The position numbers were made by a program, and so were the translations under genes. This document shows positions 5,137 to 38,987 of a stretch of DNA of 64,000 nucleotides, one piece after another. Position 1 is the first letter of the stretch; the number at the start of each line of letters is the position of its first letter. Origin of the DNA: an uncultured virus (IMG/VR IMGVR_UViG_3300022602_000089) (taxonomy: Duplodnaviria; Heunggongvirae; Uroviricota; Caudoviricetes); IMG/VR virus record IMGVR_UViG_3300022602_000089. One strand, given 5' to 3'. The notes under the pieces were generated by a model, which did not search any database, was not told where the DNA came from, and saw only the letters and a list, made by a program, of their open reading frames with translations.

Positions 5137-5333
5137 TCGACGGCGAGTCAGCATTAAACCATGTAGCGCGACAGCTAGATGAAAAAATTCTACAACTTCA
5201 AGAGGCTTTAGCAGACGGACGTGTTGAAACTTTTGATGAATATAGAAAAGTATGCGGAGAAGTTAAAGGTCTACTTACCGCACGAACATACATAACAGAC
5301 CTAAAACGGAATATGGAGCATGATGATGAATAA
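5133..5333 (+). CDS. Small head-module protein
   Basis: ATGA overlap with portal stop; EYRKVCGEVKGL helix. Confidence 0.7.
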   Translation: MIDGESALNHVARQLDEKILQLQEALADGRVETFDEYRKVCGEVKGLLTARTYITDLKRNMEHDDE

Positions 5334-5733
5334 TGTAATAGATATTAATAAGGCGATAGATTTACGCGCGATTATGAAAGATTCAGAAGATAAGGCTAAG
5401 CAATTACCTAATCCTATGGGGTATCGTATTTTATGCGCAATCCCTGAATCGGAAGAATCCTTTGAAAACGGTATTCTTAAATCTGATGAAACAAGACGAC
5501 ATGATGAATTATTAACAACAGTCCTTTTTGTAGTAAAGATGGGGCCTGACTGTTATAAAGATCCTGAGCGTTTCCCAAGTGGGGCGTATTGTAAGGAAGG
5601 AGATTTTGTTCTTACAAGACCTAATGCTGGCACACGTTTAGTTATTCATGGGCGTGAATTTCGTTTGATTAATGATGATTCTGTAGAGGCAGTCGTACAA
5701 GACCCTCGTGGAATCAGCCGTAAGTTCTATTAA
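5320..5733 (+). CDS. groES: Phage co-chaperonin (GroES/Cpn10-like)
   Basis: PMGYRIL, GIL, VVKMGPD, KEGDFV and LINDDSVEAVV follow the GroES pattern; lies between portal and scaffold. Confidence 0.85.
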   Translation: MMMNNVIDINKAIDLRAIMKDSEDKAKQLPNPMGYRILCAIPESEESFENGILKSDETRRHDELLTTVLFVVKMGPDCYKDPERFPSGAYCKEGDFVLTRPNAGTRLVIHGREFRLINDDSVEAVVQDPRGISRKFY

Positions 5734-5742
5734 GGAGGGTAT

Positions 5743-6711
5743 ATGGCAGAAAATTATAAATTTCCCGATGAAATCGAGGAAGATAACAACGTAAGTTTTG
5801 AAGTGGAGGGCGTTGACGAGATTGAAATTGATATCGTTGATGACACTCCTAAAGAAGACCGGAATAGAAAACCTTTAGATTCAGAAGCAAAAGACCAACT
5901 TGAAACTTTGGATGAGTCTGAAGAATATTCTAAGAATGTAAAAGAGAAATTTTCACAGTATAAGAAGGCTTGGCATGAAGAAAGACGCGCAAAAGAAGCT
6001 GCTTTACGTGAACAACAAGAGGCTTTAAGGGCTGCTCAAGCTATTTTAGATGAGAATAAACGCCTACAAAGTCAATTAAGAAGCGGTGAAAAAGAAATAA
6101 ACTCTAACTATAAATCAGCCGCAAAAGCTGAGTTAGAGAAAGCTAAGAAAGACTATAAAGACGCTTATGATTCTGGCGACTCTGATAGACTTTTAAAAGC
6201 CCAAGAAGACATGGTAAAAGCACAGATTAAACTAGATAAGTCAAAAAAGTTTAAAAATACTGTACAAAATGACCAAAACAATGTAAAAATACCTGTACAG
6301 CAGCAACAACCGCAGGTCCAACCACAAATGGACCCTAAGTTTGCTCAATGGGTGTCACGAAATCAGTGGTTTGTTAATCCGGAAAAAAGACGGATGAAAT
6401 TATACGCTGAGGCATACCATGAGGAGTTGCAAAGTCAATATGGCGCAGGTTTTATCGGTACAGATGAATACTATAAACGTATTGACGATGAAATGAAAAC
6501 TAGGTTCTCGGATGAACTTGGTGGGGCAGTAAGAAACGATGAGGATAAACCTCAACGTACGCAAAAACTAAGCACGGTAGTAGCCCCTGCTAAACGGAGT
6601 ACAGCGTCTAAAAGAATTGTGCTTACTAAATCAGCATTAGCTACAGCAAAAAAGCTTGGTGTAACACCAGAGCATTATGCCCGTGAATTTGTTAAATTGG
6701 AGAATCAATAA
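5743..6711 (+). CDS. Probable capsid scaffolding protein
   Basis: Acidic N-terminus, long coiled coil, C-terminal AKKLGVTPEHYA helix; position before capsid genes; SD AAGGAGG. Confidence 0.7.
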   Translation: MAENYKFPDEIEEDNNVSFEVEGVDEIEIDIVDDTPKEDRNRKPLDSEAKDQLETLDESEEYSKNVKEKFSQYKKAWHEERRAKEAALREQQEALRAAQAILDENKRLQSQLRSGEKEINSNYKSAAKAELEKAKKDYKDAYDSGDSDRLLKAQEDMVKAQIKLDKSKKFKNTVQNDQNNVKIPVQQQQPQVQPQMDPKFAQWVSRNQWFVNPEKRRMKLYAEAYHEELQSQYGAGFIGTDEYYKRIDDEMKTRFSDELGGAVRNDEDKPQRTQKLSTVVAPAKRSTASKRIVLTKSALATAKKLGVTPEHYAREFVKLENQ

Positions 6712-19966: not shown

Positions 19967-20770
19967 ATGGCAGAAAGTTATTCAACCTCATTAAAACTAA
20001 CCATAATAGGCGCTGGTGATCTTGCTGGTACTTGGGGTAATGTTACTAATACGAATCTTGGGTCTTTACTTGAACAAGCAATTACTGGTGTGCAAACCAT
20101 TAATATTTCTGGGCTTAGTTCTTATACATTAACTAATATTAATGGATCATTGGATGATGCAAGAAATGCTGTTCTTATATTTCAAAACGCGACTCAAGCA
20201 TGTACGATTGTCTGCCCAGGCGGTTCAGCAAATAAAGTGTATGCGATTGTTAATCAAGGTTCTTATAACATAGTAATGTCCGCATCTGGAGGTAGCCAAA
20301 CATTAACTATTCCAGCTGGTATGACAGCGCAAGTTTATTTAGATGGTACGAATCAAACAGGTAGTGGAATTGGTGTATATTCATTATTAAATGGGGTTCC
20401 TGGGGCTTTTATTGTAGGTGGAAGCTTAACAGCTAATGGGGTTTCTGACTTAGGAGCTTTATCTGCAACAACAGGTACGTTTAGTGGGGCTGTATCAGGT
20501 ACCTCAACAATTACAGCAGGAACTAATTTTATTGGTCCTGGCACAGGATTAACAGGCACAGCAACAAGCCTTTCTATTGGTGGCAATGCCGCCACCGCAA
20601 CAAGCGCAACAACTGCAACAAGTGCAACGCAAGTAGTTATGACAGACTTTTCAATTAAAGAAGTTAGCGGTAAAATTTATTTTTATTATGGGGCTACACA
20701 AATAGCATCTATTGATTCATCAGGAAACTTTACCTCTCTCGCTAACGTAACTGGATATGGAACACCATAA
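19967..20770 (+). CDS. Tail fibre/spike protein
   Basis: YSTSLKL..GTWG..TNTNL..LLEQAI N-terminus; GNAATATSA repeats. Confidence 0.7.
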   Translation: MAESYSTSLKLTIIGAGDLAGTWGNVTNTNLGSLLEQAITGVQTINISGLSSYTLTNINGSLDDARNAVLIFQNATQACTIVCPGGSANKVYAIVNQGSYNIVMSASGGSQTLTIPAGMTAQVYLDGTNQTGSGIGVYSLLNGVPGAFIVGGSLTANGVSDLGALSATTGTFSGAVSGTSTITAGTNFIGPGTGLTGTATSLSIGGNAATATSATTATSATQVVMTDFSIKEVSGKIYFYYGATQIASIDSSGNFTSLANVTGYGTP

Positions 20771-21843
20771 TGGCTACATATTTACAAACATCTGGCGCAA
20801 TTTCACTTAATGATATTAATACTGTGTTCGGTCGTGGGACAGCAATAAGCAATTACACAGGTACGACGTATTACACATCCACTACAGGACCAAACACGTT
20901 CCCTTCAACTAATCTGTCATTTAATAATTTTTATGGTACTGGACCTACTGCTAACCGAGCAACATTAGCATATACGTTTAGTTCAAATACTGCAAATGCA
21001 TCATTAAATGTAACTTCAATTAGCGGATATGTTGCAGGTAAATCTGATATTACAATCACAGTAAATAGTGGAATTTATTTATACGCAACAACTACATCTA
21101 ATGCAGGGTTAACACTTTCAGGTGGAACATCAGGCGATACAATCACTCTTGTAAATAACGGATACATAGCAGGTCAAGGTGGTGGTGGTGGTTTTGTTGG
21201 CGCAGGTGGTAACGGTGGCGTTGGACTATCTTTAGGATTTAATACCACAGTAAACAATACAAACGGTTCCGCATATATTGGTGGTGGTGGTGGTGGTGGT
21301 GGTGGTGGTTCCAACGGTGTCAATACTGGTTCAGGTGGAGGTGGTGGAGCGGGAGGTGGGAATGGAGGTACTGGCGATTCAGGATCAGGCGGTAGCGGAG
21401 CATATGCGGGAGGAACAGGGTCTTCGGGTAGTTCCAATTCTGGCGGCGGTGGTGGAGGCGTTTTCCCTGGAACGGGAGGATCGGGCGGTAGTTCCAATAC
21501 TAGTGGTTATCAAAGAGAACCCGGTTCTGGTGGAAGTGCAGGTGGTGGGGGAGGGTCAGCATCTCTCGCACTTAAAGGTACTGAAGCAGAATATAATAGT
21601 GGAGGCGGAGGTGGATGGGGTGCTTCAGGAGGAACAGGATACGGTACTGGTGGTACAAATTCCATATCTGGCTATGGCGGAAGTGGCGGTTCATCAAACG
21701 GTGTAGGGGGTAACGGCTCTGTTCCAAACTATAATCAAGTTACTAATTCAGGAGGATCGGGAGGTAATGCAGTTGCATTAAATGGACATACAGTAACTTG
21801 GGTAAGTGGTAATACAACTAGAGTATATGGGGCGGTAGCATGA
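20770..21843 (+). CDS. Glycine-rich receptor-binding adhesin (gp38-like)
   Basis: SGAISL.DI N-terminus, NNGYIAGQGG, many poly-Gly segments, GGGGGWGASGG, C-terminal TW...RVYGAV. Confidence 0.75.
   Translation: MATYLQTSGAISLNDINTVFGRGTAISNYTGTTYYTSTTGPNTFPSTNLSFNNFYGTGPTANRATLAYTFSSNTANASLNVTSISGYVAGKSDITITVNSGIYLYATTTSNAGLTLSGGTSGDTITLVNNGYIAGQGGGGGFVGAGGNGGVGLSLGFNTTVNNTNGSAYIGGGGGGGGGGSNGVNTGSGGGGGAGGGNGGTGDSGSGGSGAYAGGTGSSGSSNSGGGGGGVFPGTGGSGGSSNTSGYQREPGSGGSAGGGGGSASLALKGTEAEYNSGGGGGWGASGGTGYGTGGTNSISGYGGSGGSSNGVGGNGSVPNYNQVTNSGGSGGNAVALNGHTVTWVSGNTTRVYGAVA
21280..21309 (+). repeat. (GGT)10 in-frame trinucleotide repeat
   Basis: Read directly; encodes Gly10. Confidence 0.95.
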
Positions 21844-23744: not shown

Positions 23745-24236
23745 ATGGATTGGTTAGCTCAAATCGCACCTGGCATTGCTACTGCTCTAGGTGGACCACT
23801 AGCAGGTCTTGCTGTTACTGCTGTATCAAAAGCACTTGGTATTGATGAAAAAGATGTGCAGTCTACAATTGAATCAGGCAAACTTACTTCAGATCAACTG
23901 ACATCTATAAAGCAAGCTGAATTAGAATTGCAAAAACAAGCTAATGAACTGGGTTTAGACTTTGAAAAACTTGCGGTAGATGATCGTAAATCTGCAAGAG
24001 ATATGCAAACAGCAACGCATTCATGGATTCCACCATTACTTTCTATTTTAATTACAGCTGGATTTTTTGGGATTTTATTTGCTTTGATGATGGGATATGC
24101 TACAAAGTCTGATGAATTAATGATTATGTTAGGTTCATTATCAACTGCTTGGGTTGGTATCGTCTCTTTTTACTTTGGTTCATCTGCTGGTAGTCAAAAG
24201 AAAGATGAGCTATTACATCAAAGTACACCGGCATGA
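23745..24236 (+). CDS. Holin-like membrane protein
   Basis: APGIATALGGPLAG, DRKSAR, two TM segments, FYFGSS; directly before the endolysin. Confidence 0.7.
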   Translation: MDWLAQIAPGIATALGGPLAGLAVTAVSKALGIDEKDVQSTIESGKLTSDQLTSIKQAELELQKQANELGLDFEKLAVDDRKSARDMQTATHSWIPPLLSILITAGFFGILFALMMGYATKSDELMIMLGSLSTAWVGIVSFYFGSSAGSQKKDELLHQSTPA

Positions 24237-24748
24237 AAGAAAATTACTACGCATCATTAGCTCAAGTATTAAAGAGCGAAGGACTTTGGAGTGACAACCC
24301 TGCCGACCCTGGAGGAGCCACTATGAAAGGAATTACGTTAGAAGTATACCGTGCGTGGAAACGAAATCCATATATTACAAAAGAAGAATTAAAGGCTATT
24401 TCAGATGCTGATGTACATGATCTTTACAAACAAAAATATTGGGATGTATGTCATTGTGACGATCTTCCAGCTGGTATTGATTATGCAGTCTTTGACGCTT
24501 CAGTTAATATGGGAGTTGGTCGAGCCGCTAAATTAATTCAAGAAGCTACTAATTGCGCGCCAGATGGAATTATCGGACAGGGAACTTTAAATGCAATTAA
24601 GATGCAGGATAGTAAATCGATTCTTGATAAGTTTGCTACCCTAAAAGAAAACTTTTATAGATCACTAAGTACTTTTCCTACTTTTGGTAATGGGTGGTTA
24701 AATAGAGTTGCATCAGTTAAAACAATTTCAGAAGAGATGTTAGGGTAA
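24233..24748 (+). CDS. Endolysin, glycoside hydrolase family 108 with peptidoglycan-binding domain
   Basis: EG....P.DPGGAT..GIT, FD..VN.G, DGIIG..T and FG.GW.NRV motifs. Confidence 0.9.
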   Translation: MKENYYASLAQVLKSEGLWSDNPADPGGATMKGITLEVYRAWKRNPYITKEELKAISDADVHDLYKQKYWDVCHCDDLPAGIDYAVFDASVNMGVGRAAKLIQEATNCAPDGIIGQGTLNAIKMQDSKSILDKFATLKENFYRSLSTFPTFGNGWLNRVASVKTISEEMLG

Positions 24749-27885: not shown

Positions 27886-29247
27886 ATGGCATTCGTTGAC
27901 GTTGCTTTAGCTGTTGGTTCAGCGGTTGGGGCCGATGCTCTTGGCGCTACTGCTGCTACGGTTATTGGCGGGGGGTTACTAGGCGCGGGTGTTGGTGGTC
28001 TTTACGGCGGATTAACAGGCGGCAATATCGGGCAAGATATGCTGATGGGTGCTGGAATAGGGGCTGGAGGCGCTGGGCTAGGTACAGCTTTTGGAGCTGG
28101 CGCTGCTGGTGAAACCGCTGCTACTACTGCTGGGGGAACTGCTGCTACTACCGCTGGACCTGCCGCTACTGCATTTGCTCCTACATCGATGGCTAATATG
28201 CCACTATCAACAGATGTTGCCACAAACCCTTTGTTTACAAATACTGCGGGGGCTAATGCCGTTAATGGTACAGATATAGCTAGTGCGGCAAATACTGCAA
28301 GCTCTAGTTCTGGTCTTGATTCTGGTTTTAGTAAAGCCCTTAATTGGATGGATAATAATAGGGCTTTAACTGCTGGCGGCGTAATGCTAGGCGCTAATCT
28401 ATTGGGGCTAAATAAACCAACCACGTTTAATACTCCGACTACGGGTAGTGGGGTTAATACAAATTATTTTGCGCCTTTTACACCGCAAAATTTTCAGTCA
28501 TCGCGTATGCCAGTAACTACTAATCCAGTTAAACCTTCATACCAAAATTATGTTCAAAATCCTTATTCTCCGCCTCAACAAATGGCATCAGGCGGTATTG
28601 CTGGTTATGCGGATAGTAATTATGAAGATTTACAAAAATATGAAGACATGATATCGCCGCGAGCAGCTAGTAACCAAGACCCAAGCTGGATAACTAACCC
28701 AACTATACCCGCTGATAATCAAATACTAGATCAAAATACTAAAAGCATGTCCCCAGTTGAAGCAGCTAAATATCGCTTAGCGCAAGCTATGGCGCAAGCA
28801 GGTATGCCAACAAGTTCAGGTATCGGTCTATCTCAACAAACACATCCATATGGGGCTATTAATACTGATCCTGCTATGGTTCAACAAGCCCAAGCTCAAC
28901 AAGCTCAACAAGCTCAACAAGCTCAACAAACACAGAACGCCGCTAGTGGGGGCATTATGGGGTACAGTTTAGGCAATTACGCTTCAGGTGGTAATCCTCG
29001 TTTACTTAGCGGCCCAGGCGACGGTATGAGCGATGATATTCCTGCAACAATCGGCGAAAAACAACCAGCTAGATTAGCTGATGGTGAGTTTGTTGTACCT
29101 GCTGATGTGGTTAGTCATCTAGGTAATGGGTCTACTAAAGCCGGCGCAGATAAGTTGCATAACATGATGAACAAAATTAGAATGGATAAAACAGGTACAA
29201 AAAAACAAGCTCCTCAATTAAAAACGGATAAATATTTACCGAAATGA
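27886..29247 (+). CDS. Internal virion/ejection protein
   Basis: Gly/Ala hydrophobic N-terminus; xASGG motifs; GPGDGMSDDIPA...LADGEFVVPADVVS. Confidence 0.7.
   Translation: MAFVDVALAVGSAVGADALGATAATVIGGGLLGAGVGGLYGGLTGGNIGQDMLMGAGIGAGGAGLGTAFGAGAAGETAATTAGGTAATTAGPAATAFAPTSMANMPLSTDVATNPLFTNTAGANAVNGTDIASAANTASSSSGLDSGFSKALNWMDNNRALTAGGVMLGANLLGLNKPTTFNTPTTGSGVNTNYFAPFTPQNFQSSRMPVTTNPVKPSYQNYVQNPYSPPQQMASGGIAGYADSNYEDLQKYEDMISPRAASNQDPSWITNPTIPADNQILDQNTKSMSPVEAAKYRLAQAMAQAGMPTSSGIGLSQQTHPYGAINTDPAMVQQAQAQQAQQAQQAQQTQNAASGGIMGYSLGNYASGGNPRLLSGPGDGMSDDIPATIGEKQPARLADGEFVVPADVVSHLGNGSTKAGADKLHNMMNKIRMDKTGTKKQAPQLKTDKYLPK
28891..28929 (+). repeat. 9-bp tandem repeat CAAGCTCAA, 4 copies
   Basis: Read directly; encodes QAQ repeats. 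Confidence 0.9.
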
Positions 29248-32261: not shown

Positions 32262-35200
32262 ATGAACTTACAAGAATTTAGGCAGCAGTACCCCCAATAT
32301 GATGATATGTCAGATAATGACTTAGCTAAAGGGCTGCATGAAAAATATTATTCTGATATGCCTTTTGAAGATTTTAGTAAGCAGATTGGACATACTTCAC
32401 AACCAATAAAACCTGCGCCTACTGGCCCAGAAGTTTTGCCTGAAGATGATAAGTCTAGTGATTTTATGCGGGGACTCTCAAACACACTGCCTGGCATTAG
32501 TAGCACTGGCAACGCCGCAAAAGTACTAGCGGGTAAAGCTGTTGGTAGTAAAGAAATGATGGAAAGCGGCGTTCAAGGCATGAATGAAGCCGAGGCGCAA
32601 CAAAGAGTTAAAGCATCTGACGACCTTACTGAAGCATGGAAAAAAGGTATTGGTACTGTATTAACAGACTGGCTTCCGTATCAAATGGGTTCTGGTCTTG
32701 GTAATCTTGCTGAAACCGCAGCTTTTGCTGGTGTTGGGGCTCTTGCTGGTGCGGCTACTGGAATGGGGGTTGGCGCACTACCTGGCGCTATTGAAGGTGC
32801 AATAAGTAAAACGCTTATTAGAAAAGGTATTCAAGCTGAAGCTGAAAAATTAATTAAAGACGGCGCTAAAGATAAAGCTGAAAAATTAATTCAAACTGAA
32901 GCTAAATCAGTACTTAAAAGTATGGGCGTTAATGCTGGCATGGCTGGTCAAGCTGTTATGCACGGCGCTGGTGAAACTACAAATAGAGCTTTAGGCGAGT
33001 TACAACAACAAGGTAAAACTGCGGAAGATTTAGATTTAGGCAGAGTATTACCCGCCGCGGCAATACACTCGATTGCTGACTTTGCTGCTGAAAAGTTTAT
33101 GGCTCAAGGAGCTAAAGGCCTTAACTTAAAAGGGCTAGATGCAGAATCTACTGGCAAATTATTTTATGACGTTACTAAAGCTATCGGTACAACTAGCTTA
33201 AAAGAAATACTACCAGAAGAAATTCAAACTATGGCTGAGCGCTATGGCGCTAAGTTATCTTTATACGATGCCGATGCTATCAAAGATTATATTAATACGG
33301 CAGGTGCTTCTATAGGTATGTCTTTAATACCTGGCTCTATGGGCGGTGTTAAAACTTATTTAACTGGTTCACATGAAACATCACCTGGGAATGAAACTAA
33401 AGGTAAGGACTCATTTACTGGGATCGATAAAAATATAGAAACAAAAGTAGATACATTAACGCCTGAAGAAGCCGCAATGTTAAATCCTGCTACTGATGAT
33501 AAAGGTGCCCCATTAGCTGAGTCCGCTACGCTTGTTCAAAATATTGCTAAAGTTGAAGATAAAGATACTATACCGGATTCAGTAACACAAGTAACCCCGC
33601 AAGATACCATAGAAGCAGCTAATTATTTAGCACAAATAGATTCTGGTGAAAAGAAACCAAAGTTTCCTACACTACAAAAACATATTAAAGCTTTAGGGCT
33701 TGAAATTCCTGAAGGCGGCCCGAACCGTAATCAAAGAGCAATAGAATTATTAAGAAATCATCTAGCAAAATTAGGAGAACAAAATGTTGCAACTGACGCT
33801 GGAACAAGTGGAATTAGCACTACAGTATCTAGTGGAGTGGAGACAAACAACACTGCCACCACAGTTGCAGGAGCTGAGACAACAGGATTGGGAGCAAATA
33901 ATAATGCTCAAAACCAGCCTGGAGCAGGAGAGGGACAGCAGCTCAATCCATTAACGAGAGCTATTCAAACTGCGCCTACACCAGAACAAATAGCGCAACA
34001 ACAAGCTGCTATACAACAAACCAACCAACAACAAACTACTCAATTACAAACGGCGTTTGAAAAAGATCAACAAGAAAAAGCTGCTATAGAAGCACAACGT
34101 CAAGCTGACTTACAAGAAGTAGCTGGTAAAACTATCCCTCAAACTAAAACTGATGCTGAGTTAAGAGATGAATATGAATTATCACGTCAGGCTTTAACTG
34201 AAAAAGATATACAAGTACCAGCATGGGAAGATTTAACAGCTGACGAAAAAGATAAATATTTAAGTGAATTAAAAACTGGTGAAACTGGACAAGGCATTGA
34301 ACAATATCTTGCAGCGCAAGGTAAATCATTAGCAGACATAAAATCTAAAGAAGAATTAGAAGCAATTAAAAAAGAATATAGGCAACAAGCTCCTACAGTT
34401 ATCCCAGCGGCTAGTGCTTTTGATAACGCAGCTAAAGCATTAGCTGATTATATTGAACAAAAAAGTGATACGGGTGAAAGCGCTGTATCTACTAACCAAC
34501 AGAAAGTTATTAATGGTTATGAAGATAGCCGTAAAGCATACCAACGTGAATTAGGTATAGACTTACCTGCATGGGGTGGCTTATCTTCTGAAGCTAAAAA
34601 TGTTTATATGGGCTCTGTTAAAAATAATACAGTCGTAGAACAAAAAGCTGGATTTACTGCTGTTGCTGAACAATTAGAAAAAGAAGGTAAAGGTATACGC
34701 GGCGTAACTCGTGCCGGCATCGAGCAACTAAAACTTAAAGGTACTGAAAAACAATCTAAAACTGTAGCGCAAACACGCATAGAACAAGAAAGAAAACAAG
34801 AAGCTGAGGCTGTAGGTAAAGGTAAGTTAGTATCTGAACAAGTACGTAGTTCATTAGAAAATAGTGATATTAACGGTGCCTTACTCGGTTTAATTGATAC
34901 TGCTGAAGGGGCTAAAATAACTTTAGAAAGAGGCGAGCTTGATAAAGGTAAAGCAGCTGTTAAAACTTTAATAGAACGTCAGTCTAAACTTACCAAACTC
35001 GTTAATAGATTTTTAGCCAGAGCGCTTAGTGAAATAACATTTAACTCTACAGTAATTACAGATGCTAATAATGAAATTATTCAACGCTTAGAACGCGAAG
35101 GAAAGTTAGCTGAATACGATCCTAAGACTGATACATTTTACTTTACTAAAAATGGGTTTGATGAGTCTACTGTATTGCATGAAATTACCCACGCTGGAAC

Positions 35201-38200
35201 TGTTAAGTTAATTAATAAATTTTTAACTGACCCTACTTCTTTAACAGATACGCAACGTGAAGCGATGGAGCATTTACAGAAGATTTTTAATTTTGCTAAA
35301 AGTAAGTTAAACGGTAAATACCCAAACGCATTTGAAAATCTTTATGAATTTGTAACGTATGCTTTAACTGATAGTAAATTCCAAAATGAGTTAGCTAATA
35401 CCCAAGTACGCCCTTTGGCTAAATACACTATAGGCATAGTTAAAAATTTATGGGATAACATAACTAGCGCGTTTGCAAAACTATATAACTTAGCTACAGC
35501 CAGCGCAACTAAAATTCAAGTAAGACCAGAATTGTTTGACGCGATGTCTAAAAGTTTATCTCCTATGGACAAAGAGAGTCTTTATGAAGAGACGGGCGAA
35601 GAAGGTGTTACTACGACTGATGTAGGCGATATGAAATTTGGTAATGAAACGCCTATTAAAGAGACTAAACAAAAATACAAACCGGGTAAAGTATTTTTAG
35701 GTTTACAGCCAGGCTACGAAGGTAATCTTTTATTAGAAGTATCTGAAATATTAGGGGAGATTCTTGAATCGCCTGAAGCTGGTATTGAAGTTGCCCCATT
35801 AGCTGCCGCTGCAAAAGGCGCTGCCGGTAAACCAAAAGTTACTAAACTTCATGGTAAAGAAGGCGATTTATTTGTTAATGATGAAAAAAATGACCCCTAC
35901 GCTTTATCGTCAAAAGAAAAACCTAAAAAAATTACGAGCATTACTAAATACTTTACTACAGCGCCAGGAAGAAGAAGGTTAGTAAATTTATTTCAAAATA
36001 TTAGTGTTGAAGCTAAAGCTGTCCAAAATGCAATGGAGCTTGCTGAACTTTCTAATTGGGAAGACCAAGATAAAATTAATACCCCTTGGACTTTTATAAC
36101 GCTTAGCAATACTATAGCTAAAAATTTATTTAGTAGGTTTGTTGCAACCCCTCGTGAGCGCTTAGAAAAAAATATTGCTGGGTTGGCTAAAGAAATGGGA
36201 ACTGATACAGATGGGGCGCTAAAAACAATCCATAGATTAATAGAAGCCTTGCATGAGGGAGAGCGCCGTGCCGTTAAATATATTTTAACTGTGCCACTTG
36301 ACGAGAATAAAATTTTAAATAATGGGACATTAAGCCCAGCTACAAGACGTACACAAATTATTAAATTGCTAGATACTAAACGCTTAACTAAAGACCAAGC
36401 TAAAGCTTTACGTAATGAATTAAATACTATGGCTTCACGCTATGCTTCTTCAATTAGCAATACTCTATCTAAAAAACAACAAGGCAATAACGACTTACTA
36501 GACATTAACCATGAACGGTATAACGTACTTGGTGTAGATAGAAAAATTATAGACGGGCGTTTAAAAGCATATAAAGAAAATACAAAGCTTAAACCAATAT
36601 TAGATACTATTCTTGCTAACTTAAAAGAACTTAATGATGTAACTACAATGCTTAATAAAGAAGCTAATTACTGGTCTGCTTATGTAGATAACAGAGTTAA
36701 TTTTTATGGGTACGAGCATTATGCGCCATTTAGAGGTAAAGCTGAATTTAATAAATCCACTAATGTAGATGAAGATTTAGATTTTGATAGTCCACGTCTA
36801 GGTAAAGAAATGCAAGACGTAGCGTATGGGTTCGACGGTCGTTTTACTGTTTCTGATAATCCAGTCCTACAAACTATGTCGGATGCTATCCGTGCCGCTA
36901 CTCGTGCTGGGCGTAAAGGGCTAACGCTTTCAATTAGAAACTTATTAGCCAAAGACGCAAAAAATCCAAATGGGCAGAATGTTATTGCCGGAAATGTAAT
37001 AGATCACATACCGTTTAATGAGCGTGATACTGACAGGTTAAATAAAATTCCTAAACTAAAAACGCTTTTGCATTATAACGAAGATGGTAGCATTGACGTT
37101 TTGCAAATCGATGATGAAAAAATGCTAGATAGTTTACGCCGTACTTATCAACAGACTAGTACGCTAACTGAATATGCTAATAATATAACTAGCTTTTTTG
37201 GGCAGTTGCATACTCGCTATAACTATAATTTTGCGCCGTTGAACTATGTACGGGATACATTAACTAACGCTTGGGCTATTGGTGCTGACTTAGGCCCAGT
37301 TAAATCTGCACAACTTATTGGACAGATTAGTGCGCAAGTTGCTAAAGGTGGGTTACAAAAAGCTGGTAAGGTAGCTTACCTAATGGAGACTCGTCAATTT
37401 GATAAGTTAGAAGCCTTTGTTAAAAACGATGCTTATGCTACAAACGTGATGGAATACATACGTCGGGGTGGCCCAACATCATACTTACAAGGCATTAGTT
37501 TAAAAGCAAACTGGGATAACCTAGATAAAGAATTAGGTAAGTCAAGAATTATTAAAGGTAAAGAACAGCTAGATAAGTTTATGGACATATACAACAATAT
37601 GTTTGAATTATCTAGCCGTGCCGCAGCATACGGGCTAATGAAAAGTAATTATAAAACACAGGGCGCATCTGAAAATGTAGCTCAAATACGTGCCGCAGCT
37701 TACGCTAAAAACTTAGCTAACTTTGAACAAGTCGGTGAGTTAGGTAAAGCTATGGGAGCATTTTATATGTTCTTCCGTCCATCTGCTACGGGTGCTGTTC
37801 GTGCTATTGAAGCAGTTGCTCCAGCATTTAGAAGCGTAGATAAAGCATTAAAAGATGCAATAGGTGTTGTACCAGGCCTTGCAGATAATGCAGAAGCCCA
37901 AGAAAAATTCCGTAGTAACTACGCAGCTAAAAGAAAAAATGCGCAGCAAATGGTTGGGGTTTTACTCGGCATGGGTATGGCTATATACGGCATGGCGGCG
38001 CTTGGTGCTGATGACGATGATATGGGTCGCAACGATGTGCTCAATGATAATATGGACCAGTGGACTCGTTTTGCTAGGTTTCATTTACCACGTTGGTTAA
38101 GTGAGGATAGAACGCCTATACAGATTCCTTGGGGTTTTGGGCTTGGTGCTTTTGCTGCGGCTGGCGCTCAATTCGCTTCAGTTGTTTCTGGGTCCCAGTC

Positions 38201-38987
38201 ACTAAAAGGTGCATTGTCTAATATATTCTTAGGTATCTCTTTAGACTCGTTTGTCCCAATCCCAGTATCACACATGAATGCGGTAGATGATCCATTAGCA
38301 TTTGCTGTTGATTCTATAATGCCAAGCACAGTACGTCCTTTGGTTGAGTTTGTTATGAACAAAAACGGTCTTGGACAAAGTATTTATAATGACTCAAACC
38401 GTAAAATGGGCGACGCTTATATTGGCGGCGATAAAGTCCCGCAAGTATGGAAAGATTTAGCAGTCTATATGGCAAACGAATCTATGGGCGGGTTTGATAT
38501 AAGCCCTAACACTATGTATTTTTTTGCTAATAGTTATGCTGACGGTATTACCCGTGTTGGGGAACTGGCTTACGGTCTATCTAATTTGGTTGATGGCAAA
38601 AAAGAATTTAGTGCTAAAAATGATGTGCCTTTATTTGGTTCGTTCTTTGGTTCTAAGTCTAGTGTAGATAGCCGTCAATTTTCTAAAATGGAAACTGATA
38701 TAAAAGAAACGCAACGCATTATCAATGAGTTTAAAACTAACCCATATCAGATGGCACGTTTTAGAGCTGAAAGACCAATGGATGAATTAATAGTTGACTA
38801 CTACAATAAAGCTGTTAACCATGACTTAAAAAATTTAAGAGCACAAGCAAATAAATACAGGGAGAATACTAATTACGATCCCGCTATGAAAAGCCAGCTA
38901 TTAAAAATTAACCAATATCAACAGAATTTAGTTAAGTATCAGATGATGAATATGTTTGAAGCTTATGGCATGAAACGCCCACGCTAA
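32262..38987 (+). CDS. Giant polyvalent virion protein with zincin-like metallopeptidase motif and LPD38-like C-terminus
   Basis: 2241 aa; FRQQYPQYDDMSD N-terminus; VLHEITH (35178-35192) with downstream EF; YMFF, IPWGFG and NKNGLGQSI in the C-terminal region. Confidence 0.75.
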   Translation: MNLQEFRQQYPQYDDMSDNDLAKGLHEKYYSDMPFEDFSKQIGHTSQPIKPAPTGPEVLPEDDKSSDFMRGLSNTLPGISSTGNAAKVLAGKAVGSKEMMESGVQGMNEAEAQQRVKASDDLTEAWKKGIGTVLTDWLPYQMGSGLGNLAETAAFAGVGALAGAATGMGVGALPGAIEGAISKTLIRKGIQAEAEKLIKDGAKDKAEKLIQTEAKSVLKSMGVNAGMAGQAVMHGAGETTNRALGELQQQGKTAEDLDLGRVLPAAAIHSIADFAAEKFMAQGAKGLNLKGLDAESTGKLFYDVTKAIGTTSLKEILPEEIQTMAERYGAKLSLYDADAIKDYINTAGASIGMSLIPGSMGGVKTYLTGSHETSPGNETKGKDSFTGIDKNIETKVDTLTPEEAAMLNPATDDKGAPLAESATLVQNIAKVEDKDTIPDSVTQVTPQDTIEAANYLAQIDSGEKKPKFPTLQKHIKALGLEIPEGGPNRNQRAIELLRNHLAKLGEQNVATDAGTSGISTTVSSGVETNNTATTVAGAETTGLGANNNAQNQPGAGEGQQLNPLTRAIQTAPTPEQIAQQQAAIQQTNQQQTTQLQTAFEKDQQEKAAIEAQRQADLQEVAGKTIPQTKTDAELRDEYELSRQALTEKDIQVPAWEDLTADEKDKYLSELKTGETGQGIEQYLAAQGKSLADIKSKEELEAIKKEYRQQAPTVIPAASAFDNAAKALADYIEQKSDTGESAVSTNQQKVINGYEDSRKAYQRELGIDLPAWGGLSSEAKNVYMGSVKNNTVVEQKAGFTAVAEQLEKEGKGIRGVTRAGIEQLKLKGTEKQSKTVAQTRIEQERKQEAEAVGKGKLVSEQVRSSLENSDINGALLGLIDTAEGAKITLERGELDKGKAAVKTLIERQSKLTKLVNRFLARALSEITFNSTVITDANNEIIQRLEREGKLAEYDPKTDTFYFTKNGFDESTVLHEITHAGTVKLINKFLTDPTSLTDTQREAMEHLQKIFNFAKSKLNGKYPNAFENLYEFVTYALTDSKFQNELANTQVRPLAKYTIGIVKNLWDNITSAFAKLYNLATASATKIQVRPELFDAMSKSLSPMDKESLYEETGEEGVTTTDVGDMKFGNETPIKETKQKYKPGKVFLGLQPGYEGNLLLEVSEILGEILESPEAGIEVAPLAAAAKGAAGKPKVTKLHGKEGDLFVNDEKNDPYALSSKEKPKKITSITKYFTTAPGRRRLVNLFQNISVEAKAVQNAMELAELSNWEDQDKINTPWTFITLSNTIAKNLFSRFVATPRERLEKNIAGLAKEMGTDTDGALKTIHRLIEALHEGERRAVKYILTVPLDENKILNNGTLSPATRRTQIIKLLDTKRLTKDQAKALRNELNTMASRYASSISNTLSKKQQGNNDLLDINHERYNVLGVDRKIIDGRLKAYKENTKLKPILDTILANLKELNDVTTMLNKEANYWSAYVDNRVNFYGYEHYAPFRGKAEFNKSTNVDEDLDFDSPRLGKEMQDVAYGFDGRFTVSDNPVLQTMSDAIRAATRAGRKGLTLSIRNLLAKDAKNPNGQNVIAGNVIDHIPFNERDTDRLNKIPKLKTLLHYNEDGSIDVLQIDDEKMLDSLRRTYQQTSTLTEYANNITSFFGQLHTRYNYNFAPLNYVRDTLTNAWAIGADLGPVKSAQLIGQISAQVAKGGLQKAGKVAYLMETRQFDKLEAFVKNDAYATNVMEYIRRGGPTSYLQGISLKANWDNLDKELGKSRIIKGKEQLDKFMDIYNNMFELSSRAAAYGLMKSNYKTQGASENVAQIRAAAYAKNLANFEQVGELGKAMGAFYMFFRPSATGAVRAIEAVAPAFRSVDKALKDAIGVVPGLADNAEAQEKFRSNYAAKRKNAQQMVGVLLGMGMAIYGMAALGADDDDMGRNDVLNDNMDQWTRFARFHLPRWLSEDRTPIQIPWGFGLGAFAAAGAQFASVVSGSQSLKGALSNIFLGISLDSFVPIPVSHMNAVDDPLAFAVDSIMPSTVRPLVEFVMNKNGLGQSIYNDSNRKMGDAYIGGDKVPQVWKDLAVYMANESMGGFDISPNTMYFFANSYADGITRVGELAYGLSNLVDGKKEFSAKNDVPLFGSFFGSKSSVDSRQFSKMETDIKETQRIINEFKTNPYQMARFRAERPMDELIVDYYNKAVNHDLKNLRAQANKYRENTNYDPAMKSQLLKINQYQQNLVKYQMMNMFEAYGMKRPR
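33784..33954 (+). CDS. 56-aa overprinted gene in the +1 frame of the giant protein gene
   Basis: SD AGGAG (33773-77) 6 nt before ATG; MLQLTLEQVELALQYLVEWRQTTLPPQLQELRQQDWEQIIMLKTSLEQERDSSSIH. Confidence 0.6.
   Translation: MLQLTLEQVELALQYLVEWRQTTLPPQLQELRQQDWEQIIMLKTSLEQERDSSSIH

Follow-up and report, generated by a model that had tools for sequence, protein, structure and literature searches.

Overprinted genes, in which one stretch of DNA is read in two frames, are known from phages; examples are B within A, E within D, and K in phiX174, and 4.1/4.2 and 19.2/19.3 in T7. To our knowledge, gene finders do not call open reading frames (ORFs) that are nested within longer genes. The subject here is a candidate of this kind in DNA from an uncultured virus (IMG/VR record IMGVR_UViG_3300022602_000089; Caudoviricetes). 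This stretch of 64,000 nucleotides (nt), taken at its full length, is called the window. On its plus strand, a 56-codon ORF lies in the +1 frame inside a gene for a virion protein of 2241 amino acids (aa), referred to as the giant gene and the giant protein. The best explanation overall, held at a probability of about 0.85, is that the ORF is a genuine coding gene with its own ribosome-binding site and ATG, placed in a disordered spacer of the giant gene. Such a gene would share with the phiX174 and T7 examples a same-strand, out-of-frame position, a start of its own and a compact phage genome. Unlike those examples, which come from small genomes or involve genes of ordinary size, the nested gene is better conserved than its host gene and persists across giant genes that are mosaic.

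A second parallel is the Rz/Rz1 pair of phage lambda, the best-studied case of an embedded phage gene. The +1 frame of Rz encodes Rz1 across a part of Rz that is mutationally silent, and the two products bind to each other (PMC5295617). The arrangement in the window resembles what is described there, in that a small gene is wholly embedded in the +1 frame, on the same strand, over a linker-like stretch of its host gene. It differs in that Rz1 is a secreted, outer-membrane lipoprotein from a lysis cassette, and there is no sequence relation between the two. An embedded o-spanin gene of the Rz1 type, with the giant gene as the corresponding i-spanin gene, was considered and rejected. The 56-aa product is acidic and has no Cys, signal sequence or hydrophobic N-terminal segment, and the host gene encodes a virion protein with a peptidase domain and LPD38 (large polyvalent protein associated domain 38), with the endolysin gene 7.5 kb upstream.

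The giant protein resembles the polyvalent proteins, as set out in Iyer et al. 2017 (PMC5512222): it is a giant, multi-domain protein encoded among structural genes, with a HExxH...E peptidase and the phage-only LPD38. In that text, a zincin-like peptidase is proposed to autoprocess the polyprotein. As "overlapping" came up 0 times when this paper was searched for terms, no mention of nested genes was noticed in it. A term search of a review of ejection proteins returned "overlap" and "reading frame" 0 times, and a term search of the phage A4 paper found only an M23 peptidase and a transglycosylase mentioned for its ejection protein. At the level of titles and the openings of abstracts, the literature search brought up no account of a small gene within the gene of a giant or polyvalent phage protein. 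Same-strand nested genes as such are already known; the family, its breadth and its better conservation relative to the host gene appear to be new as far as the searches show.

Conservation of the nested frame

The first-pass annotation of the window, made from the letters alone, had claimed a hidden overprinted gene with its own Shine-Dalgarno (SD) sequence and ATG over a host-frame linker, and every comparative test backs this claim. The AGGAG, 6-nt spacing, ATG and 56-aa ORF in +1 that it reported are read exactly so in the sequence, with an identical peptide, and the spacer between the AGGAG and the ATG is AACAAA. The host linker, which had been described as low in complexity and rich in T, G, N and A, agrees in composition over aa 508–565; across the overlap T occurs 11 times, G 9, N 8 and A 8 among 61 residues. 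The HExxH motif that was claimed downstream in the large protein is present, at aa 973–977. Since a TAG stands three codons before the nested ATG, there is almost no room for read-in from upstream.

Scanning viral contigs with the giant protein gave 12 loci (numbered here, as are all others, with an L), of which 3 are full-length homologues and 9 share the first 40–80 residues only. The full-length homologues are 80% (L001) and 46–47% (L002 and L003) identical to the giant protein. All three carry AGGAG or AAGGAG, an ATG, an open +1 frame of 57–59 codons and a stop at the same position. Loss of the SD sequence or ATG in homologues, or stops in this frame, had been named by the first-pass annotation as evidence that would tell against a gene; SD sequence, ATG, frame and stop are all kept. 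The nested peptide is 64% identical to that of the window in L001 and 44% in L002, and the host frame at the overlap is a variable linker that is rich in insertions and deletions (indels).

Divergence by codon position was followed in a host-protein alignment of six lineages (the window, L001, L002, L014, L015 and L032). Outside the overlap, host codon positions 1, 2 and 3 diverge by 0.401, 0.313 and 0.540 (25,784 codon comparisons); inside the overlap, the values are 0.434, 0.367 and 0.281 (851 comparisons). Among 119 sliding segments of 57 codons, the sole deep dip at position 3 (0.30–0.33) lies over the nested ORF, and the minimum elsewhere is 0.42. Position 3 falls below position 1 in 12 segments, 9 of which are contiguous at or around the overlap, the other 3 being marginal and situated in a poorly aligned stretch (position 3 at 0.47–0.51). 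When the overlap is read in the nested frame, positions 1, 2 and 3 diverge by 0.392, 0.284 and 0.452, and because the pattern is position 2 < 1 < 3, the nested frame shows a coding signature.

Additional loci were found with the peptide. The first scans with peptide alignments gave 6 viral and 16 metagenome loci; 14 of the 16 have an intact nested ORF, and two are identical to that of the window. Two more viral scans, which used sub-alignments, found 11 and 47 loci. At 58 of 58 loci found by peptide, a long open frame encloses the small ORF at +1 offset; this host frame stays open for 534 to more than 1800 codons, with the ends of the loci setting the limit. After 71 loci had been collapsed to 57 unique loci by their core peptides, the host frame proved to be open across the core in all 57, as against 3 for the third frame.

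The start signals are kept in the same loci. An SD-like motif 3–11 nt before a start, within 20 codons of the core, is found in 54 of the 57 (47 ATG, 5 GTG, 2 TTG), and two of the three without it are cut by the locus end. The SD-to-start spacing is mostly 6–7 nt, and the distance from core to stop is 51–55 codons, with exactly 53 in 39 loci. A strict pattern, with AGGAG or GGAGG at 5–8 nt from an ATG just 5' of the core, is present in 28 of the 57 loci and occurs 4 times in the other 257.6 kb of host genes. Two of these four occurrences are starts themselves, one of a host gene and the other, further upstream, of the nested gene.

A set that is free of peptide ascertainment was obtained by fetching giant genes by their metallopeptidase domain alone and searching them in six frames with the family profile (the best 80 of 297 relatives). 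The nested family is found upstream on the same strand in 73 of the 80, at 174–647 aa before the peptidase match. All but one of these matches (72 of 73) are in +1 and enclosed by the open frame that encodes the peptidase; the odd one out, L140, has a broken host ORF. In each of the 7 misses, the host ORF is cut by the contig end, with 95–914 aa of upstream sequence present. An SD sequence and start are present in 62 of 64 unique loci of this set (54 ATG, 7 GTG, 1 TTG). As separate observations, an indel in L033 (1361–1669) runs the nested frame into that of the host midway along the small gene, and the host ORF of L140 is interrupted (5260–6666); these two-frame breaks could be assembly errors or real frameshift variants.

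The start regions also bear on programmed frameshifting, by which the giant gene would give a truncated N-terminal fragment with the peptide as its tail, and no free small protein. An intragenic SD-like sequence can stimulate frameshifting, as in prfB and dnaX, and the product here would finish right after the N-terminal module. Against this stand a nested-frame stop 0–9 codons 5' of the start in many relatives (directly before the ATG in L084), the lack of a conserved slippery motif among the start regions, and a start that is kept at SD spacing in nearly all unique loci of both sets. Frameshifting is consequently regarded as quite improbable, and a separate start within the giant gene is preferred.

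Selection on the two reading frames

The three frames were compared over the same columns in the 57 loci, using an alignment that was built on the nested peptides. Mean pairwise amino acid identity is 42.6% for the nested frame, 25.7% for the host frame and 26.9% for the untranslated third frame, and the nested frame is the most identical of the three in 99.4% of 1596 pairs. Host-frame residues across the overlap in these loci are chiefly G (17.5%), T (14.1%), A (14.0%), P (10.6%) and V (10.4%).

Single-base differences were then classed by their effect on the nested frame first and on the host frame second, with S for a silent and N for a replacing effect. Over 24 pairs that are phylogenetically disjoint, SN changes were observed 319 times over 784 sites (rate 0.41) and NS changes 115 times over 1000 sites (0.115), with Fisher p = 1.7e-46 for SN versus NS; the NN class has 216 over 1682 (0.128) and the SS class 12 over 18 (0.67). 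The peptidase-fetched set (25 disjoint pairs) gives SN 358/796 (0.45) and NS 93/1071 (0.087), with p = 5e-75. In pairs that were ascertained through the host protein, the same comparison gives p = 1.2e-5 for the window and L002 and p = 6e-6 for L001 and L002. Nested-silent changes thus exceed host-silent changes about four- to five-fold per site. As the SN rate is far above the NS rate, the nested protein is clearly under purifying selection, with the host frame close to unconstrained.

The peptide is also retained where its surroundings are not. In 449 of 1128 locus pairs neither giant-protein flank is BLAST-detectably similar, yet the peptides are 42.6% identical, and in L068 and L069 the peptides are 89% identical while similarity of the upstream flank is undetectable. 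Other segments of the giant protein are less widely conserved, being detected by iterative profiles in 5 to 37 of the 57 loci. Judged by these patterns, it is the small protein that selection maintains; all that is required of the giant gene is an open frame over the nested gene. The nested ORF is, with high likelihood, a real translated gene. Because scores of related, uncultured phages preserve the small protein while the spacer drifts, the DNA very probably codes for two proteins here.

A conserved non-coding element, such as an RNA structure or an internal regulatory site, would also conserve synonymous sites and leave an open frame as a by-product. The 221-nt stretch at 33740–33960 does fold somewhat better than its shuffles (z = -2.43), with 3 of 200 shuffles folding as well. 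Such an element would not predict a position 2 < 1 < 3 divergence in one frame or the excess of nested-silent over host-silent changes, nor would it predict a conserved SD sequence and ATG, a fixed stop and conservative amino acid replacements. A regulatory site in the form of an internal promoter for the nested gene finds no excess of promoter-like sites either (7 against 6.8 expected). This explanation is thought to be very improbable. In the predicted fold of the overlap RNA (33740–33960), the SD sequence lies partly within a weak, 5-bp stem.

Several points weigh against the ORF being a gene. The giant gene contains a longer +1 ORF with an ATG (70 aa, 37888..38100) and +1 stop-free runs of 78, 59, 59 and 54 codons, and 7.05% of 76,566 segments of 53 codons elsewhere in the related host genes are stop-free in +1. 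Within the window sequence alone, the length of the nested ORF is not unusual, and because a longer +1 ORF sits in the giant gene, a nested ORF in one sequence proves nothing. The loci found by peptide were ascertained for an open frame, so that the count of 58 of 58 and the openness over the 57 loci are partly circular. In the peptidase-fetched set, L118 has 914 aa of upstream sequence yet no nested match, and may be a true negative. The comparison of the window with L001 goes in the same direction as the other pairs and is not significant (SN 12/30 versus NS 9/38, p = 0.19). Of nine records whose similarity to the giant protein is confined to its N-terminal motif, seven gave no match to the nested family (0 of 7), and the other two, L035 and L036, are more distant relatives with the gene nested alike. 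Finally, no cultured phage bearing the nested gene was found in the searches made, and all of its relatives are uncultured contigs.

The long ORF, the stop-free runs and the roughly 7% of open segments are what would be said in favour of chance, that is, of a +1 ORF that arose in a G/A/T-rich linker and is no gene at all. Chance would leave unexplained that frame, start, SD sequence and stop are kept across lineages with otherwise unalignable giant proteins, and that substitutions follow the nested frame. In addition, the control +1 ORFs of the giant gene are not conserved: all four (37888..38100, 35851..35982, 38536..38667 and 36826..36924) are interrupted by stops in some relatives, and the 70-aa ORF has 6 stops in L001, the closest relative. 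Next to no weight is therefore given to chance, and a nested coding gene is retained as the explanation.

The small-protein family and the giant host protein

Sequence comparison places the nested gene in an unnamed, widespread family, found in giant genes from many phages that are all uncultured. When 1.84 billion representative proteins were searched with the profile, 97 had an expectation value (E) ≤ 1e-3, of which two have E ≤ 1e-10. The 97 are all 48–135 aa in length and nearly all are matched through the last residue; a few of the longer ones bear N-terminal extensions that resemble off-frame translation. Ten that were looked up are singletons or pairs, either unnamed or called "hypothetical protein". 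No recurring Pfam, PHROGs or NCBIfam family was found among the members. Phage_TAC_7 was rejected as an identity, since 0 of 74 members reach the Pfam cutoff (one has 23.3 bits, where 25 are needed) and the window protein has no match. The window holds a single copy of the family: the profile matches at the nested ORF with E = 3.8e-22, a value that is not independent because this ORF was in the seed of the profile (the independent members are the 97 database proteins), and the next best six-frame match has 0.074.

Across an alignment of 74 sequences (A4), the family shows a helix with L-[ST]-x-E-Q-[ILV]-E-x-A, a proline-containing loop with P-x-E-L, an invariant-like Trp and a long, Leu-rich helix with E-[KR], ending in S-x-[LIV]-H. 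In the family as a whole, the C-terminal tail ends in S-x-[LIV]-[H/Q]. The predicted length is 56–72 aa, with a median of 58 in the unique loci of the peptidase-ascertained set. The proteins are acidic, with a median isoelectric point (pI) of 4.6 and a median net charge of -5 for the core in the 57 unique loci. The last residue is H in 46, Q in 9 and N in 2 of the peptide-ascertained set; in the peptidase-ascertained set, it is H in 31 and Q in 30 of 61 unique sequences.

AlphaFold2, run with the 74-sequence alignment, predicts helices at 6–17, 26–29 and 33–52 and a free C-terminal tail (predicted local distance difference test, pLDDT, 80.3; predicted template modelling score 0.60). The two amphipathic helices joined by a PP turn, which the first-pass annotation had read from the peptide, were thus roughly right: PP is at the turn, but there are three helices in the model. 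Foldseek of the model against the PDB gave no match at E ≤ 0.001, and the family profile against PDB sequences gave nothing below E = 0.18. A wide VIA-align search found generic three-helix arrangements (homeodomain, Myb) with a best Z of 4.7, which is not informative, and a DNA-binding role was set aside as unlikely given a net charge of about -5. The ESM Atlas returned unnamed viral clusters, with a best score of 0.81.

Searches outside the uncultured contigs returned no members. A word-index protein search with the 56-aa product gave no candidate, two family members had no tblastn match in cultured phages at E ≤ 0.1, and neither the giant gene nor the overlap matched cultured-phage DNA (50,697 records). 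The giant protein itself, in tblastn against cultured phages, has only matches of 24.6% identity, over aa 1484–1853, in 118 Vibrio and Shewanella phage records; in one of these, MW824390.1, neither the nested family nor the peptidase domain is found in the 19 kb examined. A scan of a bacterial genome collection gave no true copy. Its sole match, L095, falls in a TruB-like gene from a metagenome-assembled genome of Ktedonobacteraceae and is a false positive, and L034 (2988–3896) was rejected as a family member for the same kind of reason, its match too being to a TruB-like gene. The TruB-like pseudouridine synthase gene of L034 and L095 is picked up in pattern scans through a short word that it has in common with family helix 1. 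The longest contigs that bear the nested gene are about 60–66 kb.

The window resembles a tailed-phage genome; the nested gene and the features around it are placed in Table 1. The plus strand carries terminase, portal, major head protein, tail fibre-like and endolysin genes, and the minus strand carries replication genes. The endolysin-family gene (24233–24748; phrog_315, E = 2e-46) is in the middle of the structural block, directly before the gene for an 813-aa virion protein, and the plus-strand genes that follow it have 813, 128, 453, 120, 883 and 2241 codons. Two further ORFs lie inside other genes of the window: a 142-aa ORF with a TTG start (21278–21706, plus strand) within 20770–21843 on the same strand, and a 140-aa ORF with a GTG start (28002–28424, minus strand) that is antisense within 27886–29247.

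Table 1. Positions of the nested gene and of the giant-gene features around it, in window coordinates
Feature	Position	Strand	Remarks
Shine-Dalgarno sequence AGGAG of the nested gene	33773..33777	+	6 nt 5' of the ATG; host codons Leu-Gly-Glu
Probable nested gene	33784..33954	+	ATG (33784-33786), 56 codons, TAA; +1 frame of the giant gene; family unnamed; product small and acidic, with three predicted helices
TAG stop in the nested frame	33772..33774	+	three codons 5' of the ATG; bounds the ORF
Host gene	32262..38987	+	encodes the giant polyvalent virion protein of 2241 aa (internal/ejection type); closes the structural block
Host-frame linker (aa 508-565)	33783..33956	+	rich in T, G, N and A; spans the nested gene
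Zincin-like metallopeptidase domain of the giant protein	34968..35636	+	HExxH 35178-35192, Glu-Phe 35346-35351
LPD38 domain	38046..38567	+	Pfam match

Within the giant protein, LPD38 (Pfam PF18857) is matched at aa 1929–2102 with E = 1.3e-13 (51.9 bits, where the cutoff is 27), and there is a weak sequence match to a solved "internal virion protein", 9sfn_G (E = 0.0035). Residues 1–40/60 (window 32262–32440) are 52–61% identical (37% in L009) in nine otherwise unrelated contigs, L004–L012. This N-terminal stretch is kept far better than most of the remaining protein; it may direct the protein to the capsid or portal, or act in packaging.

The peptidase domain has no significant match among Pfam models. 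In 23 aligned sequences of this region G, H, E, H and E-F (H77, E78, H81, E133-F134) are invariant. The AlphaFold2 model (pLDDT 67) has three strands, then motif-bearing helices at 72–93 and 131–140, and Foldseek relates it to zincins (PPEP-3, the lethal-factor family, ArdC) and to phage ejection proteins including 8vb2_A, in matches that are weak (E ≥ 0.15, template modelling score about 0.3). Because the motif helix and the downstream Glu match the description in PMC5512222, the HExxH region is taken as a probable zincin-like peptidase.

The nested gene is followed by a recognisable copy of this domain in 43 of the 57 unique loci. Five more loci have a HExxH followed by an acidic helix, four of these in a visibly different clade; one has a degenerate peptidase copy and six have too little downstream sequence. 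The second clade (HEAxHA, then a helix with EEA-x-AEAF), which the peptidase-domain profile does not detect, comprises L048, L049, L050 and L078, where the motif is at ORF residues 925, 864, 989 and 1235, respectively.

A possible partner of the giant protein

If the nested gene is expressed as proposed, ribosomes would start at the internal SD sequence and ATG on the late structural mRNA and make a protein of about 6.6 kDa. Once made, this protein might serve the giant protein in trans as its dedicated partner, much as Rz1 serves Rz, and in this role it would chaperone the giant protein, check its autoprocessing peptidase until packaging, or both. Because the small gene lies 5' of the peptidase segment, the small protein could be made first, before the peptidase folds. 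The first-pass annotation had suggested a nested chaperone or inhibitor that holds the HExxH-bearing giant protein inactive during assembly; such a role is a plausible inference and is compatible with this gene order. A partner of the giant protein in some form is put forward tentatively, at somewhat less than even odds, and a peptidase inhibitor specifically is doubtful.

Two observations fit a partner: the nested gene is upstream of the zincin-like HExxH...E domain in the 73 of 80 genes that were chosen by this domain, and it is also upstream of the second HExxH clade in four loci. As these genes share one ancestral architecture, the association of nested gene and peptidase is not independent evidence of an interaction. 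A complex prediction of the peptide with the peptidase domain gave "no answer", with a score of 0.00 in two runs, and counts neither way on binding.

Other findings speak against the functional proposal. Peptides of one subgroup precede two peptidase clades (L051 as opposed to L048–L050), and L043 and L046, which are apparently one lineage because their peptides are near-identical, have no HExxH within 1050 aa downstream. The proposal that an invariant C-terminal His serves as a zinc ligand was set aside, and the zinc-binding idea is weakened, because H and Q are about equally frequent at the last position in the unbiased set. Moreover, the peptide outconserves all of its neighbours in the giant protein, so that a conserved partner elsewhere fits equally.

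Such a partner elsewhere would make the product of a real gene a separate acidic effector (for example a packaged or late-made protein for anti-defence or host takeover), or a virion or assembly component that binds another conserved protein of phage or host. Its gene would simply occupy a linker in which overprinting is tolerated. The retention of the peptide where both giant-protein flanks are undetectably similar, its wider conservation than the neighbouring segments and its small size and acidity would all suit a role of this kind. It agrees less well with the strong purifying selection, as arms-race effectors usually evolve fast, with the constant place of the gene upstream of the peptidase domain, or with the searches run, which found no homologue outside giant genes. 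This alternative is considered rather unlikely but deserves more weight than a dedicated peptidase inhibitor, and a partner of the giant protein remains the favoured role.

A functional parallel can be drawn with the tail assembly chaperones gpG and gpGT, which serve the tape measure protein and are small, acidic chaperones of very large virion proteins. The comparison is with how they work: the nested product would likewise be small, acidic and helical, would share its late operon with a huge virion protein that is prone to aggregate, and might be missing from the virion. Unlike gpG and gpGT, it belongs to no such family, forms no frameshift pair and is encoded by a nested rather than an adjacent gene. 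In a more speculative version, which is given little credence, the linkers of giant polyvalent-protein genes in phages would be a general, unannotated coding layer with this family as its best-conserved member. The family would be a trans-acting "safety catch" that is made from the shared late mRNA before the zincin segment and keeps the polyprotein uncleaved and soluble until packaging and injection.

Pfam, PHROGs and NCBIfam lack the nested family, even though most of a clade carries it for which one viral collection alone gives at least 297 peptidase-domain relatives. It appears to be an unusually clean case of dual coding, in which the nested protein is strongly constrained and the host frame drifts about like an untranslated frame. 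The nested gene outlasts recognisable similarity of the giant gene that surrounds it. If the safety-catch reading were true, the small gene may be the older of the two, and the giant gene may have been welded together by reading across it in another frame. If a partner or regulator role is true, the small protein would provide a handle on how huge, injected polyvalent proteins stay intact, are packaged and are later processed.

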